From assembly GCA_951406725.2 (NCBI GenBank), contig OX597821.1, forward strand, positions 55,800,001 to 55,864,000: DNA of 64,000 nt, in the 5' to 3' direction. A program made the position numbers and the translations under genes. The stretch is from Octopus vulgaris (taxonomy: Eukaryota). Positions within the stretch are counted from its first letter, which is position 1, and each line of letters starts with the position of its first letter. The notes beneath the pieces are model-generated. The model worked only from the letters and a program-made list of their open reading frames with translations, was not told the origin of the DNA and ran no database searches. Below are positions 20,646-54,392 of this stretch, piece by piece.

Positions 20646-21723
20646 TTTTTTTCTTCTTTCAAATTCGCTTCCATTTCTTGCCGAGTGTCTTCCCGACTCC
20701 TAGGGCAAAGAAACTCATAGTATACATTGGTAGGCCATTAAACCAAACTCAATAGTTCGTTCATTTTTTTTTTTTTAAGTTATATTAAAATACATGAGCA
20801 GCAACAGTTCTCACATCGACAATGCTCTTCTCAATACGTGTGATGTACCAGTTAAGACAATCTTTTGCACTTCTTGCAGGGATAGTAAGCCAGGGATCAT
20901 TCTCATATAATTTTCGGTTCCCTTCTTGATCATTCCTAGTGCTCCTACGATCACTGGTATTGTAACCGCCTTGAGATGCCACATTTTCTCAATTTCAATG
21001 AGTAGGTCTTTATATTTTCTGAGCTTGTCAAACTCTTTCGCTGAGATATTATGATCACAGGGGATGCTCATGTCGATCAATAAGCAAACTTTATTGTTTT
21101 GGTCTTTCACAACAATATCTGGTTTATTGGCCTTGATGGTTCGGTCTGTATGTACTGGAAAGTCCCACAGAATGGTTACATTTTCTCCTTCAGTTACAGC
21201 CTCAGGGTGGTGATTATACCACTTGTCGGCAGTTTTGATATTGTAATGCCGACTTATTAGCCAGTGTAGATATTGGCCAACTCTGACATGTCTTAATTTA
21301 TACTCCACTGGTGCTAAGACTTTACATCCAGAGATTAGGTGGTCCACTGTTTCAATCATGTCGTTGCAGAATCGGCATTTTGGGTCTGCTCCATTTTTCA
21401 TCACATTGGCCTGGTAGTTCCGGGTTAATAGGCTTTGATCTTGAGCAGCCAGGATGAAACCTTCATTCTCTGCTTTTAGCCCTGAGCTCCGTAGCCACTG
21501 ATGGGTTTGCTTCTGATCAACATCAGCTTGTTTGCTGCGGGCCACATATTTGCCGTGCAGAGGTTTCTCCTCCCACCTATCAGCCAATTGCTCGTGCGCT
21601 TTTTTCGTTGCCATTATTTTCACCTTCTTTGCAACAATAGTTGCCGTACTTCCCTCGGGTTGTTCAGTTTGGGTATCCTGCACGAGATCAATAGCAAATT
21701 TTTTGCTTTCCTTGATGATAGAA

Positions 21724-21724
<1 letters not shown>
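20645..21724 (-). mobile_element. 5'-truncated R4/Dong-type RLE LINE inserted in (AAT)n; open C-terminal ORF 20811-21683
   Basis: CRFC...ETVDHLISGC zinc knuckle, RH motif, and KPDIV...LIDMSIP...KLRKY restriction-like endonuclease. (ATT)n at 20573-20644 and 21726-21799. Confidence 0.92.
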
Positions 21725-21799
<75 letters not shown>

Positions 21800-24917: not shown

Positions 24918-25371
24918 TGATGATGATATTTTAAACGGATAGACGTAGCTTTTCACAATAGTTAAATAAACAATACGGAGAGTGCGAAACGATTGCAATA
25001 GATATTTTATTGGTTGAACGATATTTCAGCAGCTAGCCTCTCTTTATCGAGTTCTAAATGAAAAGTGATAAAAATTCGAAATTATATAAATCCAAATCCA
25101 AAATATAAACGAGAGCAACCAGCGTCCCAACGCTGATGGAATCAGTCTTCTAATTTCATTTTTACAACTGGCAAAAAGAACAAGAAAGAAAAAAGAGGAA
25201 AAAAGGAAAAGAAGAATATTTAATCAAGCAGTTTTTTGTAAATATGATGAATTTCTCTTGTAATTTTATTCATTCTTCCAGGGCTTGATGCTAATAACCT
25301 GCAAACATATTTTTCCTCATGCATTTGGAGTACTAAAAGTGTAGCAGATTCAGAAGAGTTTAATTGACTTC

Positions 25372-25701
25372 TTGAATTTCTGTGACTGTTATGCTAAAAA
25401 CTATGGCTTTAAGTCCAACATAAAATTTACCTCTAATTTTTCAAAAACTAATCTTGAATTTTTGGACACAAACTTTAAATTTTCTGGTGACCGAATAGTG
25501 ACAGAGTTATTTTGCAAGCCCATATCATCCCATATTTACCTTCACCGCCACATTGATCATCCACATCATATAATTCAGTCAAATCCGAAATCTCTGTTTT
25601 TGAGGATAAAACGGATTTGCTTTGATATAGGGGACTATTGGGGACATGTAAATGCTATTGCTCACCATTATGTCAAACGCGGTTACAGTGAATCCCAATG
25701 A
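25372..25701 (+). mobile_element. Penelope-like element RT/thumb fragment
   Basis: NIKFTSNFSKTNLEFLDT...TELFCKP...YLHRHIDHPHH...PKSLFLRIKRIC...Y.KRGY matches the PLE consensus. Confidence 0.85.
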
Positions 25702-38722: not shown

Positions 38723-40464
38723 ATATGTTTGACTTTTGCTTTATATTTGTACAAGTTGGCTCCAAGTCTCACCCGGAGACCTCAAGAGACAACAGGTTGG
38801 AAGTTCACGTTGTTGTTATGCCTAGTGTGCCATATATTTGGTTGTTTTTTGTGTTGTACTGGTGGATGTCTAAAAAAAAATTAAAAAATAAATAAATAAA
38901 ATAAAATAAAATAAAATGTTTGTTTTAAACCTTGAGATTTCATAGAAAGTATTTTGCGTAGGATATGAGCAGTTCCCACGAGCACTATCTTTTGAATTTC
39001 TGCCATTTTGGGGTTTCCTGGTATCTGAGTTAGGTAGTTATCAGCCCCTTTTGCTATCATTCCCAGGGAACCTATGACAACAGGTATTGTTTTAGTCTTC
39101 AGCTTCCACATTTTGCTGATTTCTATTTCAAGATCTTTATATTTGCTCAGTTTTTGGTAGGTCTTTACAGATACGTTTATATCGATTGGGACAGTCATAT
39201 CAATGAGGAGGCATGTTCTTTGTTTGAAGTCTTTCAATATGATGTCTGGCCTATTTGCATCTATCTTTCTGTCAGTGGAATGGTGAAGTTCCAAAGGAGT
39301 GAGATATGGTCATTTTCAAGCACTGGGGGTGGTTTGTGTTCCCACCAGTTTTTTTCATGGGGCAAATCCAGGTTTTTGCAGATTACCCAGTGAATATATT
39401 GTGCAGCTCTATCGTGCCTGTTGAGATACTCTGTAGGCGCTAGAAGACTGCACTTGGAGACCACATGATCTATGGTTTCATTTTGTTGTCGGCATACACT
39501 ACACGTTGGACTGCTGTTGATCTTTAATGTGTTGGCCTGGTAGTTTCTTGTTGGTAGGCATTGATCTTGAGCTGCTATGATAAACCCCTCCGTTTCAGAT
39601 TTTAAGCCAGAGGCCTTTAGCCATTGATGGGTCAGGGCTTTGTCAACATCTGCATTATTCGCTCTCTTTGGGTATTTGCCATTTATCATTCAGAATATCT
39701 AAGGCCGCAGATTTAGCACGGGTTTTCATGCGCTTAGCTTTTTCTGTGCATGTTTCTTGTATGTCTATCTCTAATTCCGAAATTTGTTGTATTCGGAATT
39801 CACTTAGATATTCCTTTGCCTGTTTTGTTACGGAGTATGATGCTTTCTTGTTTTCATGTTTTGAGACAAGTTTTAACATCCAGTCCTCAGAGTTTTTCAG
39901 GTAGGTGTCTAGGCCAATTGTAGCAATCTTCATTGTTATTGCCAGTTGTAAAAGTCCACGGCCTCGCTCTTTTCTTGGCAGATAAAGTCGTTCTGTAACT
40001 GCCTTAGGGTGATGCATTCTATGCATTGTCAACAGTTTTCGTATTTTTCTGTCAAGGTTACATATTTCAGTAATTGACCAGTTAACGATATTGTAACTGT
40101 AAGTCACGACTGGTATGGCTAATGCATTGATCGCTTCGATCCTGTTTCTCGCATTCAGCTCTGTCTTGAGTATTGCTCTTACTCTGCGATAACATTCTCT
40201 CCTGATCCTTTCCTTCATCTCTGAATGCCTTATTCCGTCTCCTTCAATTACCCCTAGATACTTGTAGTTCTCCGCTGGGTCTAATTCTTTTATGACATTC
40301 TGCTGGTCAAGGTTAACGTTAAATGTTTCTGTCATTTTTCCTTTGATAAAGGTAGCTTTGCACACTTATCGAGGCCAAATTGCATTCTGATGTCATCACT
40401 GAATTGTTTGACAATCGCTAGTAAGCCCTTGAGTTGTTGGTCATTTTTTGCAAAGAGCTTTAAA

Positions 40465-46640: not shown

Positions 46641-47656
46641 CTTACAGCAAAAGTAGTAAGCAGGTAAGGCATCCAATGGCTGGCTGAAACGAGTAAAAAA
46701 ATAAAATTTTAAGGAATAAATATTTAACAAAACTTTTAGGAAAACGTTATTAGTAGTTATGATGTACTCCCCGTTTTGTTCAGTTTGGCGTTATTAATAT
46801 GTTACAAATGTCTTGGCTTTCTCCGAGTTATGTTTTTCATAATTCTTTTTACTTCATTCATGCATATATATTTCATTCACTCTTTCTTCCACTGAAGAAT
46901 TTATAGCTATCAGTTCCAAATTGATCGACTATGTAGTAGACCCGGATTTTTCAATGAGCCTGCATAATGCCCAGATTATACCATATCTGCTGTAGACAAG
47001 CCAAAAACCATCGCACATTATAAATGTAACTGGTTGTTGGGTGTTATTGTCGAGTGTACGTTATCTGAAGGAAGCATTGAAGCAAAAGCAGTTGAGAGCC
47101 ATTGACCTTGACTGCTCTTCTAATAATAGATTTACTATCAGAGATAAATTTCTCCCTTCTTTTGTGCAGAAATAAAACGAAAATATTTGACATTTCGTAG
47201 GAAAGAGATACATATGAATTAGACAGGGTATATGTGATTATGAATGTGAGTGTGTATTTGTGTGTGAGTGTGAGTTTGCATGTGAGTGGGTTTATGTGCA
47301 TGTGTGCAAGAGAAAGAGAGAAACGGCCTATCTGTATGTGTCTGGAATTGTTTTTTATGGGAGTGCCAAATATCTAAAGGTCATCGATCGTGGGTTCATA
47401 TTCTTTAAAAATTGGGATGTGAATTTGTTAACTAATGACATGGATATTGAGTTTAGGAGAAGGATACATTATCTTTTAGGAATCATTAGACTGCGACCAT
47501 GCTGGAGTGCCACCTTAAAGAAATTTAGTCGAATGAATCGGTCCCGGTAATCATTTTCTTTATTTAAGCTTGTTATTTGTTGTATTAGTCACTTTAGCCG
47601 AACAGCTACGTTATGGGGATGTAAACACAGCAACACCGGTTGGCGGGACACACACA

Positions 47657-47694
<38 letters not shown>

Positions 47695-47725
47695 AATGTA
47701 ATATGTGACAATTATTCGGTAGCCA

Positions 47726-47788
47726 TGATAAAACTCCGAGTTTCGGATGCCGAGGTGGAAATCCACGCCGCCATCTCTTCAGTTATCA
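47726..47788 (-). ncRNA. Type-I hammerhead ribozyme candidate
   Basis: UGAUAA-CUGAAGA-[GAUG...GUGGA UU UCCAC...CAUC]C-GAA-ACUC G GAGU-U-UUAUCA: full core, 6-bp stem I, long stem II, near-palindromic stem III and GUU triplet. Confidence 0.72.
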
Positions 47789-47853
47789 GGTCATTGGGAA
47801 AATGCTATGAAACATTTTTCATAGCATTATTCATACCATTTTCCCGATGGCCG

Positions 47854-47914
47854 GATAACTGAAGAGATGGCGTCATGGATTTCCACCTCGGCATCCGAAA
47901 CTCGGAGTTTTATC
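47854..47914 (+). ncRNA. Type-I hammerhead ribozyme candidate
   Basis: GATAA (47854-58), CTGAAGA (47859-65), stem II, GAAA (47897-900), CTCGGAGT, T47909, TTATC (47910-14). Predicted cleavage is 3' of 47909. Confidence 0.7.
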
Positions 47915-48014
47915 ATAGCTACTGAATAATTGTCACATATTACATTTACAGATAAATTCCCTTATTTACATAATAGCGAAGTCTCTTTCATTCTTTTGTT
48001 ATCTTACCATTTTT

Positions 48015-48084
<70 letters not shown>

Positions 48085-49140
48085 GCGGCGAGATTCTTTC
48101 AATTTCCGTCTCCCAAATCCACTCACAAGGACTGAACTCGGGGCCATGTGGTTAGGAAAAGATCTCCTTACCACACAGCCATACCTGCACCTATTGAGTT
48201 GTATGTAGCAAACAACTTCGTTCTGGTCTGTCTTGATTGCCACCATACTTCAAAAGTATGATGGCAATCCAGTTTTAAACCTATTTAGACGTGAGTTTCA
48301 TTCTCGAACAGGCCTACTTTTAAACAAAGAAAACGTACAGTCATTCAAAAATTCGAAATCTGAAACACTTCCAATTCTTAGTATTTTGGGTGATGGGTTA
48401 ACCGTATATGTATTGAAGCTTTTGCAAGTGAAGGAAACATAACACTGTCATCCTACAGGGTACAGTATCCGTTCGATTTGTACTGAATTTGCTCTCATTT
48501 ATTGATAAAATGCATGAAAGACAGTGTAAATAAATAAAGACAGAGGTGTTGAAGTAAAATTAATTTGGTGTTTTAACACTTCAAAGAATGAATAAATGAA
48601 TTGTTTCTTTAAAATATTTCCCATGTTTGCAAGCGGATTCTTTTCTTTTTTTATATATGACTCGCACCTTTTTCATCAAAATTTCCCTTGTTACTTAAAT
48701 TCTATCCAATAACATAAAATGTTGGCGCGTAGTTCTCACATAAAATTAGTTCACCGTTTGCACTGTAATAAAAGGTATTGGGAGAAAACGAAAATTACTA
48801 AGTTACGTGTTTCGCTTCGGTGTTCGTTATTTCTGCGTCACTATGCTTTTCACTTCTTTGAAATGTGTTGGATAAAGTTAGGAAAAATTAACTGAATTTC
48901 AATTTCCGTCCATCACGTTTTTGATGGAAATGAAGTTAGAACATAAATATATTTGAAATTACATCAAAAGTGCCAGTGAATTATTATTATTTTTGTTGGT
49001 TAGTGACGATATTTTCTTATTATTATTACTCAAACTGTAAAAGAATTCAATATTGCCTGTAGTAGTTTTATTGAAGTCGGTATTGTAGTCGTCGTCCTTC
49101 TTGTTGTTGTTGTTGCTGTTGTTGCTGCTGCTGCTTCTGC

Positions 49141-49177
<37 letters not shown>

Positions 49178-49238
49178 ATTGTTGGTAATATCATTACTTT
49201 TTATTCTATACTTTTTTATTATTATCAACATTTTTCAG

Positions 49239-50547: not shown

Positions 50548-51779
50548 TCAGGCCATCCCATTAGTTCTGTCTTATTTTACATTTTTAAAATTGAAAGAAA
50601 TTTAATAGTATTTTGGAACACATTTAAACTAATTAAATACTATTTTACAGAATAATAGAATTAAAATCTCTTTGATTAAGACCCTTTCTAACATGGAATT
50701 ATCCAAAAAGCATTTAAGGCACATAATGCTTTATGAATACTAAAAAGGAAACACTGCAGCCGAAGCGGCTCGAAACATACACTCAGTTTATGGGAAAGAA
50801 TGCTTGAATGAAAGAACTTCCAGAAGATGGTTTTCAAAATTCAGAAGTGGAGATTTCAGCCTTGAAGATCGAACAGGACGTCCATTTGAGTTTGATGATA
50901 AGTTCCTTGAGGCATTACTTGAAGAAAATCATGCATTATCAGTTGAAGAATTAGCAATAAAGCTTAGTTCAAACCATACAGCTGCTCATCGTCAACAACT
51001 TGCAAAGGTTCGTAAACTTGGAAAATGGGTGCCTCCTGAATTGTCTGTAAGCAACCGCAAATCCCTAGTTGCCCTTCTCTCCAGTCTCGCGAATTCATTT
51101 CACCCTTTTTGGATAGACTTGTGACTGGTAAGGAAAATTGGATCTTCTAACGAAATGTTAAACGTCATAAACATTGGCTTGGTAAAACGGAAAAAAGCTC
51201 AATCACAACCGAGAAAGGAACTTCATAGGAAACAGATTCTTCTTTCTATCTAGTGGGATTGAAAAGAAGTAATTCACTTTGAATTGTTACCACCTAATGC
51301 AACAATCAATGCTCAAGTCTACTGTCAGCAATTAGAGCGTTTGAACCAATCTTTGAAGAAAACAATTACCCGCTTTAGTGAATCGAAAAGGAGTGATGTT
51401 TCGTCGGGACAATGTGCGACCCCACACTGCAAAGATCACATCACAAATGATTAAAGTGCTTGGTTGTGAAAAAATTCCTCATTAACCTTATTCTCCCGAC
51501 CTTGCTCGTTCAGACTACCATTTGTTTCGTGGTTAACAGAATCATTTGGTGGATATAACTTTCGCAAGCCAGGAAGAGGTCGAAACTGATATTTCAAAGT
51601 TTTTCGCTTTGAAATCAAAAGAGTTTTACATTGATAGGATTAAAAAGCTTGTAAATAGATGGAAGGAAGTCATAGATAATCAAGGAAAGTGCATTGATGA
51701 TTAAATTTCAATTAAATATAACATTTGATCACTTGTTTTCTTTATTCAAAATTCGGACAGAACTTATGGGAAGACCTGA
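50548..51779 (+). mobile_element. Full-length mariner element, transposase pseudogene (about 50693-51703)
   Basis: 24-bp TIRs tcaggccatcccattagttctgtc / gacagaacttatgggaagacctga (3 mismatches), TA on both sides. RWFSKFRSGDFSLED, WVPPEL, DNVRPH and YSPDLARSDYHLF motifs with stops and frameshifts. Confidence 0.95.
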
Positions 51780-51822: not shown

Positions 51823-54392
51823 TTTATTTTTTTTATTTTTTATTTTTATCTAGTTTCAGCTCACAAGCTGCGGCCATGCTGGGACACCGCCATTTGGTCT
51901 TGCTACATGATTTTACTTCACGAATGCTTTTTAGCAATTGTCATTTGGTGCATGAGAGAGTTCGATGCAGCTGCCCTCGTCTGCACCTCCTGCCGTGAAG
52001 TTGGTTCATCTGGGACACCTGACAAGAAGAGATCCAGTTTTATTTTAAAGGCATCTGCATCCACCCCATGCAGGTCTCTTAGGTTCTTCAGGAGGATATT
52101 GAAGAGCTGTGGGCCTCGGAAGCCCAGGCAATCACAGTATCTTGTCCAACATCTTGATGGCAAATTTGGAGTCCTTGGCACTGTGCAGTGGCGCCCAGTT
52201 CTGGCATTTGTGTAACTCTCAATGCCAAAGTCTGGGACAAGTCCTTCTAGGATCTTCCAGATGTATATTATGGCATATCTTTCTCGCCTACGCTCTAAGG
52301 AATAGAGTCTCAATCTCTTGAGTCTTTTCCCAATAGCTTATATGCTGCACAGAGGCTATCTTCTTCGTGTAGTTTCGTTGGATCGCCTCAAGTTCTGTGA
52401 TTAACTTGACACTGGATGGTGACCATAGCTGAGAGCAATAGTCAAAGTAGCTTAGGACAAGTGTCCTCCAGAGGACCATCATGGTTTCCTGGTCTCTTGT
52501 TCTAAAGGTTCTAAGAATCCATCCGGTCAGCCGCCTACATTTCATTGCCAATTTAGCAACATGCACATGAAAGGTTGCATCATCACTCATGTAAATACCC
52601 AGGTCTCGCACTGATTGCAATCCCTGGGATTGCAATCCCTCCAGATCCAGTGTACTTATTGGGTATTGCATGTAGTTTTGCATGCTGATAGCATAAAGCT
52701 TGAAACTTTTCAGCATTGAACTGCATGCTATTCTTTTCAGCCCACTTGTATATTTTGTCCAGCTCACATTGCAAGTACTTAGTGTCTTCAGGGTTCTGTA
52801 CTGCCTGTGAAACTTTTGTATCATCTGCATAACTTGTGATCGTGGCTCTCTGCGTGGCTGAGGGCATGTCTGAGAGGGCCATTATGAACAGTAGTGGTCC
52901 CAGAACAGTGCCTTGCGGAACACCGCTCACTATTTGCGTTTTAATGGCCACATTGGCTACTACCACCTGACTTCTATCCTTCAGAAAGTCATGAAGCCAT
53001 TCTCCCAATTTTCCAACAATGCCAAGATCACGCAGTTTGTGACATATCATTCCATGGTCGACTTTATCAAAGGCCTTTGCAAAGTCGAGATATATGACTT
53101 CCACATTTGAGTGGTTGAGCAGTCGTTTCAGCACCCAGTCATAGTGTTGTAGGAGCTGAGTTAAGCAGCTTCTTCCTGGTCGGAAACCATGTTGGGTGTC
53201 AAGCAGCAAGTCATTTTCTTCAAGGAAGGTGATTAGTTTCCTTCTGATTATTTGTTCAATGACCTTGCTGATGTGTGAGGTCAGAGAGATAGGTCTGTAG
53301 TTCTTAGCCTCCGCTCTGATATCTCCTTTATGAATAGGGCATATTTTACCTTCCTTCAGTTTTCTTGGAAGTTTACCAGTTGCAAGGAAGCTCTGAAAGA
53401 GGAACTGCAGTGGTCTTGCTAGGACTCTCTTACATACTTTTAGAAGGATTGCTGGGATTCCATCGGGGCCAGTCGCTGAGTTTATTTTCATTTCATCAAT
53501 AGCCTTTATTACACCGTCTTCCTTTATATTGATGTAATCAATCATCACTGCCTCTGATTTTATATCTGCAGTGGTAAAGAAGTCAGTTGGATTGCTGACT
53601 TGAAAATGCCCTAGGGGTGGAGTGAAAATACTCTTGAATTGCTCATTTAGTATTTCACTTACCCTCATTAGATTTCCTGTGAGTGTACCATCCTTTTCAA
53701 GGAGTGGCCCTATCCTACAGTGCACCGTAGCTGTTTCTTTGGCATACCTTAGAAAGCTCTGGGGTTAGATTTTATGTTGTCTATAGCCCAGGCTTCTTTG
53801 TCTGCTCTTTCTTTTTCATGGGAGAGTTGCAGACATTTTTCAATTTCCAACAGTTTTATTTTCAGGTGGGACTTTTCACTGCTTTCAATTTGTTTGTTTA
53901 GGCGATTTGAAACTTTTGTACGCCGTCTCATTAGAATTTTCTTCTCTCTGGGGATTTTGCTCTTGTGTACAGTGACCTTTCTCTCTGGGACACATTTGTA
54001 GCATATGGCTTGCATTACAGACATGAATTGTTGAAGTTTCATGTCGATGTCTGGCGAGGATAGACATTCAGGCCAGTTTTGTTTGAGGATCTCTTTCTCA
54101 ATTTGTTTCCAGTTTGCCTTATGGAAGTTCAAGCTGGAAAGATTCTGAGAGTTTCTTGTAGGCTGCATGTCCATGCTTTCCTTTGGCCCGTACATGGTCA
54201 GCTCTACCATGTTGTGATCCGAGAGTAGTGTCGGTGTCACTTTCACATTATGGATGAGATCCATATTATTTGTGAAGCAAAGATCCAGTATGTTACCTGC
54301 CCTGCTTGGTTGGAGTATTACTTGCTCCATGTACAGAGTGTTGATGAGGTTCAGGAGGGACCTCGCTTGTCCTCGTTCACATCGTGTCATTT
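51823..54392 (-). mobile_element. 5'-truncated CR1-group LINE ORF2 (end of APE endonuclease + RT), few frameshifts
   Basis: NILDLCFTN, GPDGIP, NYRPISLTS, QHGFRPGRSC, DFAKAFDKVDH, GVPQGTVLGPLLF, YADDTK and LYSLERRRERY. Ends in a (TAAAAA)-type tail. Confidence 0.93.

Follow-up and report, generated by a model that had tools for sequence, protein, structure and literature searches.

A hammerhead palindrome in an octopus (TA)n microsatellite, read as a truncated insertion of a Hydra-clade Penelope-like retrotransposon

How does a short palindrome whose two strands each bear a hammerhead ribozyme motif come to lie inside a microsatellite of Octopus vulgaris, and is it an element that moves as a unit or what the insertion of something larger leaves behind? 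The preliminary description of the window (the whole 64-kb stretch of DNA analysed here) had reported such a palindrome, and we confirmed it: an inverted repeat of 260 bp occupies positions 47691-47950, with arms of 118 nt each (47691-47808 and 47833-47950) and a type-I hammerhead motif located in either arm.

Structure of the palindrome and its hammerhead motifs

By sequence comparison, the left arm is an inverted stretch of pLTR on the minus strand, without a tail, running from about -83 to +45 relative to the cut site (47687-47814); two substitutions lie at its outer end. The right arm is a direct stretch of pLTR on the plus strand (47829-47954) that reaches the same proximal end site (+45, ATA/AATT), and loose (TA)n ends are found at 47954 in public contigs. 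Between the two arms lies a centre specific to this copy (47815-47828, plus strand) which, by eye, repeats the opening ~14 nt of the sense arm and forms the central hairpin. The window arms differ at 8 of 118 positions, mostly by CpG-type decay, and at 0 of the 11 core nucleotides, so that the differences do spare the core, as had been claimed. Only the right arm goes on beyond the shared end, into a 67-nt tail (47955-48021, plus strand) that stops at a distal site (+112, again ATA/AATT). The extension of about 60 nt reported earlier is thus real, but the element ends at about 48021 rather than at 48013.

The element splits a (TA)n tract, of which TRF detects a left part of 14.5 units (47660-47688) and a right part of 33 units (48019-48084). 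Both flanks are halves of one repeat on the minus strand: a SINE-like left half (47483-47642; blastn, 69-71% identity to 4-5 other copies in the window, there joined to the right half) and a right half with an internal deletion (48080-48194; blastn). At 4 other places in the window, blastn shows the two halves joined by (CA)n(TA)n, which agrees with the earlier placement of the unit inside the (TA)n of such a repeat, presumably a tRNA-derived SINE. If the host repeat at 48080-48194 is a minus-strand Pol III SINE, the first TTTT on its would-be transcript is at 47797-47800, near the palindrome centre and just before the minus-strand ribozyme. Since this SINE-like copy is old and deleted, it is probably silent. 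The window contains 40 open frames of at least 110 aa; they are mostly fragments of other mobile elements, and none was recognised as a host exon. Pieces resembling such elements lie at 52288-54390, 39261-40365 and 20811-21725 on the minus strand and at 50744-51124 and 25345-25701 on the plus strand; presumably they include fragments of a non-LTR reverse transcriptase (RT) and endonuclease, a mariner-like transposase and a piece resembling the RT of another Penelope-like element (PLE). A mixed (TTG)n/(CTG)n tract at 49084-49199, which would read as polyglutamine on the minus strand, falls outside the open frames of at least 110 aa.

The core nucleotides and three stems of a type-I hammerhead are present in the sequence of both motifs. 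In the plus-strand motif (47854-47914), stem I pairs GAUAA (47854-47858) with UUAUC (47910-47914), CUGAAGA occupies 47859-47865, G10.1 (47866) pairs with C11.1 (47896) with one bulged C, and GAAA (47897-47900) and a GUU site complete the motif, with cleavage predicted 3' of 47909. The minus-strand motif (47727-47787) has its core at 47782-47776 and its GAAA from 47744, and its predicted cut is 3' of 47732. Run over the 64-kb window, our own type-I descriptor found exactly these 2 sites; in 100 dinucleotide-resampled windows the mean was 0.01. The Rfam hammerhead models gave no match in the window element, even for a single arm at E≤10. Because these models fail to match, we base the identification on the motif and its resemblance to tabulated Hydra-clade hammerheads. 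Matches to Rfam miRNA models were set aside as hairpin or (TA)n noise, since they lay below the gathering scores.

Stem III can be drawn as ACUC-G-GAGU, as proposed, or alternatively as 3 bp closed by a 3-nt loop. Fold prediction sides with the suggestion that this stem favours a dimer: the dimer duplex is predicted at -13.3 kcal/mol and no hairpin is predicted for the monomer. A lone arm is predicted to prefer another fold over the ribozyme by 8-9 kcal/mol. The dimer-stable stem III and the disfavoured lone-arm fold, as modelled, would be in line with a protein-assisted ribozyme, as in the element of the green anole discussed below. For the full palindrome the predicted hairpin reaches about -202 to -203 kcal/mol; relative to it, folding as a ribozyme is about 95 kcal/mol less favourable. 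The competition between double-stranded RNA and cleavage that had been anticipated is therefore expected, but it is one-sided: whichever strand is transcribed, the antisense arm comes first and the hairpin is favoured. In any read-through RNA the window ribozymes are thus predicted to be locked in a long hairpin, from which, according to the same modelling, only a transcript starting at the palindrome centre would escape. Since each strand has one sense ribozyme, there can be no double cut and no circle.

Full-length relatives and membership of the Hydra clade

We searched a genome of 2.8 Gb in 227 contigs for relatives of the window element. Some palindrome centres hold pieces of an ORF, and tracing those pieces led to full-length copies. 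One of them (L124) consists of an inverted partial pLTR, a broken ORF, a 3' UTR of ~1.1 kb and a pLTR with a tail; another (L122) is similar. In tandem copies the tail continues into a 5' leader and then the ORF; the ATG of this ORF, at +217, lies ~215 nt beyond the cut site. Partial tandems of the full element were seen at L063, L067 and L080. The unit of this older lineage, that of the window copy, measures ~3.2 kb because of its long 3' UTR. Of 14 long stretches, none showed an intact ORF of the older lineage. A young sister lineage came up in a protein search; its RT region is 85% identical, and many of its frames stay open over 717 codons. Its copies (L254 and L262-L278, e.g. G000:C10:75577000-75583000) are ~99.5% alike, with a 2,589-nt unit and an intact ORF of 708 aa. 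The sense arm of the window copy is closer to the older lineage (90% alike) than to the young one (85%). The PLE origin and the inverted partial pLTR that the preliminary description had put forward are therefore both borne out, by two full-length parents with the same pLTR and by the partial inverted pLTR common to the window copy and these parents.

The young ORF carries RWK at position 37, DKT at 114, CxCx5C at 557, CxxC at 660 and CxH at 691, and RWK and DKT are present in 16 of 16 open frames. RWK is also found in the older lineage, and L124 has CxCx5C, CxxC and CxH as well. Pfam returned nothing significant for four proteins and a single-sequence search of the PDB with the ORF returned nothing; the one PDB match to a profile of the ORF, a retron RT, was weak (E=0.028). 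Among Atlas neighbours of the ORF at 0.96-0.97, GIY-YIG is present in 26-50% of members and RVT_1 in 18-77%. According to PMC8557442, the Hydra clade is marked by RWK, a DKG changed to DKT, a CxCx5C linker, and CxxC and CxH around a conserved E and N; its members insert into (TA)n, have a single ORF, are generally <3 kb and lack the CCHH motif in the endonuclease. On its motifs and the shared pLTR, we identify the window element as the pLTR, at the 3' end, of a Penelope-like retrotransposon of the Hydra clade.

The likeness goes further. The octopus elements share with the clade the single ORF with RWK, DKT, CxCx5C, CxxC and CxH, the (TA)n target, and a 3' type-I hammerhead with a CUGAnGAN ... 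NGAA core. The letters of stem III in Hydra-2_aMil and Penelope-16_HM are identical to those of the window hammerhead, and Penelope-13_HM likewise has a 5'-truncated inverted copy and a hammerhead listed on both strands. The young unit of 2,589 nt falls within the <3 kb size of the clade. Differences are the tail of 67 nt, where 30-40 bp is described, the long bulged stem II and, in the older lineage, the ~1.1-kb 3' UTR and ~3.2-kb unit. The arrangement has been published before: these PLEs are described with an inverted 5'-truncated copy, a tail on one side and insertion into (TA)n (PMC8557442, Fig 2), and one Hydra element bears hammerheads on both strands.

The closest named family in that source is Hydra-1_Obim of Octopus bimaculoides. 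By eye, 27 of its first 44 residues match a frame in L053, and it resembles the window element in a cut site after GUU and in the core CUGAAGAG, whereas its stems I-III are different and its 3' UTR is much shorter. To judge from these sequences, it is a sister family of the window element and not the same family. A 14-mer at stem I and the core of the window element is absent from the PMC8557442 supplement, in the portion compared. The openly accessible literature covered held nothing on the family or on an octopus hammerhead palindrome beyond the papers cited here. The family is probably uncatalogued, although it may already be listed in repeat databases or in papers that lay outside the search.

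Copies of the family across the genome

Exact genome matches numbered 2,033 for a 20-mer of the ribozyme and 2,616 for a downstream 20-mer, against 0 for controls, so the genome holds thousands of arms. Two samples were drawn. The 30 loci most like the query are by their choice biased towards its shape. The unbiased sample started from the first 100 matches listed of the downstream 20-mer on contig C1; after rows of one insertion were merged and two duplicated loci dropped, it comprised 82 insertions with 130 arms. The same insertion was met twice in three cases (L163/L164, 8 kb apart; L191/L192, 0.9 kb; L209/L238, 51 Mb), duplicated together with its flanks after insertion.

All 30 closest loci are palindromic and have the same outer ends, while their centres of 35-65 nt differ in 30 of 30. 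In the unbiased sample 44 of 82 insertions have the head-to-head two-arm form and 38 do not, and the centre is again different in every copy; two whole ribozymes, as in the window copy, occur in only 13 of 82. The outer ends obey simple rules. A tailed arm is paired with a tail-less one in 42 of the 44 two-arm insertions, and two tailed arms in none. Of 130 arm ends, 43 fall at one position and 41 at another (84 on the two together); allowing for chance TATA matches, these positions correspond to +45 and +112 relative to the cut site and both lie at ATA/AATT. By our own cut-off, 98 of 130 arm ends run into a TA-rich or purine-pyrimidine alternating repeat, a flank preference that agrees with the (TA)n targeting proposed earlier. 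At the other side, 105 of 130 arms cross the cut site, and 5' ends are 4-5 times commoner per base at -90..-61 than on either side, a hotspot also seen in 99%-identical young copies. A tailed arm stops exactly at the proximal site in 2 of 44 cases, about the chance level. A fossil trace of cleavage, in the form of 5' ends at the cut site, was not convincing (5 of 130 arms start at 0..+2, against ~2 expected).

Conservation of the core among copies, on which the preliminary description had made its reading depend, was no better than that of its surroundings. The core diverges by 4.5% against 5.4% at other non-CpG positions (p=0.30) and 16.7% at CpG sites, and all 11 core bases are intact in 42 of 74 arms that span the ribozyme. 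The ribozyme cores of the copies decay at the background rate with no sign of selection, and the window locus is an ordinary decaying by-product, one of many stump-sized pLTR copies.

These counts bear on the earlier suggestion of a retrozyme-like palindrome that moves as a unit. Such a non-autonomous element would be transcribed, cut by its two ribozymes and re-inserted whole with the help of PLE enzyme, and PLE-derived retrozymes exist (bioRxiv 10.64898/2026.07.22.740005). The ~320-bp form is common and the 13 insertions with two whole ribozymes fit this reading. Non-LTR retrozymes (Cervera and de la Pena 2020, PMC7229834; Li et al. 2026) resemble the window unit in being non-coding, in their type-I hammerhead and PLE pLTR ancestry, and in similar size. 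They are, however, hammerhead-bearing units of 150-450 nt repeated directly in tandem, which are cut twice to give monomers and circles, whereas the window unit is an inverted pair. Direct tandem hammerheads numbered 0 among the 100 matches listed (same-strand neighbours within 6 kb). With this, the differing centres in 30 of 30 loci, the core decay at the background rate, and a single sense ribozyme per strand in a hairpin predicted at -203 kcal/mol, movement as a unit is largely refuted already, and we give it very little credence. Two related candidates were also rejected: a MITE or fold-back DNA transposon, since the ends are asymmetric and the interiors differ in 30 of 30 loci, and a fixed deleted subfamily (a retrozyme-like 430-nt unit with the ORF start joined to the pLTR), since the junctions differ between copies. 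In the loci concerned (L061-L090, L033, L041 and L022), a 5' piece of the ORF ending at +320..+560 is joined to pLTR from about -62..-87, each with its own junction, probably where the enzyme switched template at the 5' end of the RNA.

Assembly is difficult where a palindrome lies between (TA)n tracts, and the inversion in the window copy might be an artefact of it. We regard this as extremely improbable: its arms differ at 8 of 118 positions, mostly by CpG-type decay; the two-arm form recurs in 44 of 82 sampled insertions; and contigs from independent public runs have opposite-strand joints at 9 different places among 15 joints listed. Since these independent contigs show many inversion joints and loose (TA)n ends at the same two sites, the structure of the family is real. 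Their support applies at the level of the family, the window copy's own centre (47799-47820) lying outside the coverage of 4 runs.

The young lineage forms the same structures. Among complete two-arm insertions, 21 of 23 are tail/no-tail by eye, in a count drawn from 44 loci of which part were picked for long ORFs. Young palindromes of ~300 bp (L279-L282) have four different centres and ends at -70..-80, and the lineage also forms 2,589-nt tandems and long head-to-head tandems. Its ribozyme reads CCGAAGA (U4C) in 40 of 40 pLTRs of L263-L278 and in 100 of 100 listed of 1,924 pattern matches. A U4C hammerhead has considerably lower activity in vitro yet still supports viroid infection (PMC3088659), so the young ribozyme is weakened rather than surely dead. 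The median distance between cut sites is 1,725 nt in the young lineage and 139 nt in the older one (29 and 9 pairs, p=0.0002). That the young insertions are longer may equally well be due to the ribozyme or to the loss of long palindromes over time. Young and older pLTRs differ largely by CpG-type changes, as if the former derived from a decayed copy.

Formation of the palindrome

With considerable confidence we read the window copy as a 5'-truncated insertion of a Hydra-clade PLE, composed of a tailed end and an inverted tail-less copy, and likely built at insertion by RT priming on both (TA)n strands. The putative GIY-YIG domain of the element would nick both strands of (TA)n; one target 3' end would then prime at +112 on the element RNA and the other at +45, and the ATA/AATT at both priming sites would provide ATA homology to the target. 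Both cDNAs would read through an uncut ribozyme, and most would end 60-90 nt upstream of the cut site. This stop zone is probably the 5' end of a transcript starting inside the pLTR, a start to which the clustering of ends points; Drosophila Penelope has an internal promoter in its pLTR (PMC2377424), which fits such a start. At the RNA 5' end the enzyme may stutter, as the repeated first ~14 nt in the centre of the window copy would suggest, or jump into the ORF leader, and the two cDNAs would be joined head to head by microhomology or filler. Lacking the ORF, the window copy is predicted to be a dead end.

A biochemical parallel is Poseidon PAc of the green anole (Frangieh et al. 2024, PMC11167929), in which two internal RT start sites define the tail; in vitro both strands are cut and extended, uncut RNA serves as template and cleavage is unnecessary. 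The octopus family resembles it in the AT-rich target and in the tail between two putative start sites. PAc belongs to another clade, and its hammerhead overlaps the ORF start, whereas the octopus ATG lies ~215 nt past the cut site. One difference tells against dual priming: the tail/no-tail rule in the octopus genome is nearly strict, whereas the anole element in vitro shows no strand difference in start site.

The two arms of an insertion are related to each other. Arm divergence within and between insertions is 7.4% and 9.2% in the 30 closest loci and 10.3% and 14.2% in 20 unbiased pairs. Two subfamily sites were also compared: at each, both arms have the same variant in 17 of 20 pairs, against shuffle means of 9.5 and 11.3. 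This sharing could alternatively reflect conversion between the arms after insertion, as the uneven centres could reflect later deletion. Shared variants would also be expected under the chief rival reading, in which the inverted arm is a fold-back copy, made when a cDNA or antisense RNA primes itself and is copied back on itself, with the centre later trimmed unevenly. Self-priming on an antisense template has been proposed for head-to-head junctions of rotifer PLEs (Arkhipova 2013, PMC3846280), and several octopus junctions lie in self-complementary ribozyme stems with a 4-18 nt overlap. Fold-back copying can yield only sequence already present in the first cDNA, however, and in the sampled insertions either arm may be the longer at the 5' side, the tail-less extending beyond the tailed or the reverse. 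Moreover, at L181, L186 and L234 a tail-only piece is joined to a tail-less arm with no overlap between the arms, and some young insertions have two multi-kilobase arms of different content. We consider fold-back copying distinctly unlikely, and priming on both target strands accounts better for these cases.

If the stop zone is the transcription start, it has a further corollary, which we put forward as a rather unlikely possibility. The centre of every mini-palindrome might retain two back-to-back internal promoters, from which RNAs would run outward in both directions, each with one ribozyme but lacking an antisense copy; the ribozyme would then act as a brake on its own element, from which the young U4C lineage, with its much longer insertions, would escape. 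If true, this reading would make for hundreds of cryptic promoter-ribozyme units in microsatellites.

How PLEs insert is called an open matter in PMC8557442 and PMC11167929, and the octopus family is a useful record of insertion. It supplies counts: a nearly strict tailed/tail-less rule, two ATA/AATT start sites, and a stop zone pointing to priming near the RNA 5' end. The young lineage adds an intact, recently active Hydra-clade protein and a natural variant of the ribozyme core. Since this lineage, with its intact ORF and U4C, makes the same mini-palindromes, the priming model can be tested directly, as can the role of the hammerhead.

Some further arrangements in the family were also observed. 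The left end of one young insertion (L254:440-720) is an inverted ~90 nt of host flank, with no pLTR arm there. Another young insertion (L273) has tails at both ends and an identical flanking repeat on both sides, by conversion or an assembly effect. A 9.5-kb near-perfect palindrome (96.5%; L127, G000:C17:79836000-79845900; also L131 and L116-L119) has two ~3.3-kb PLE arms; their flanks are mirrored too, it lies near a contig end, and it has relatives of 97-98% identity 60 kb and 12 Mb away.
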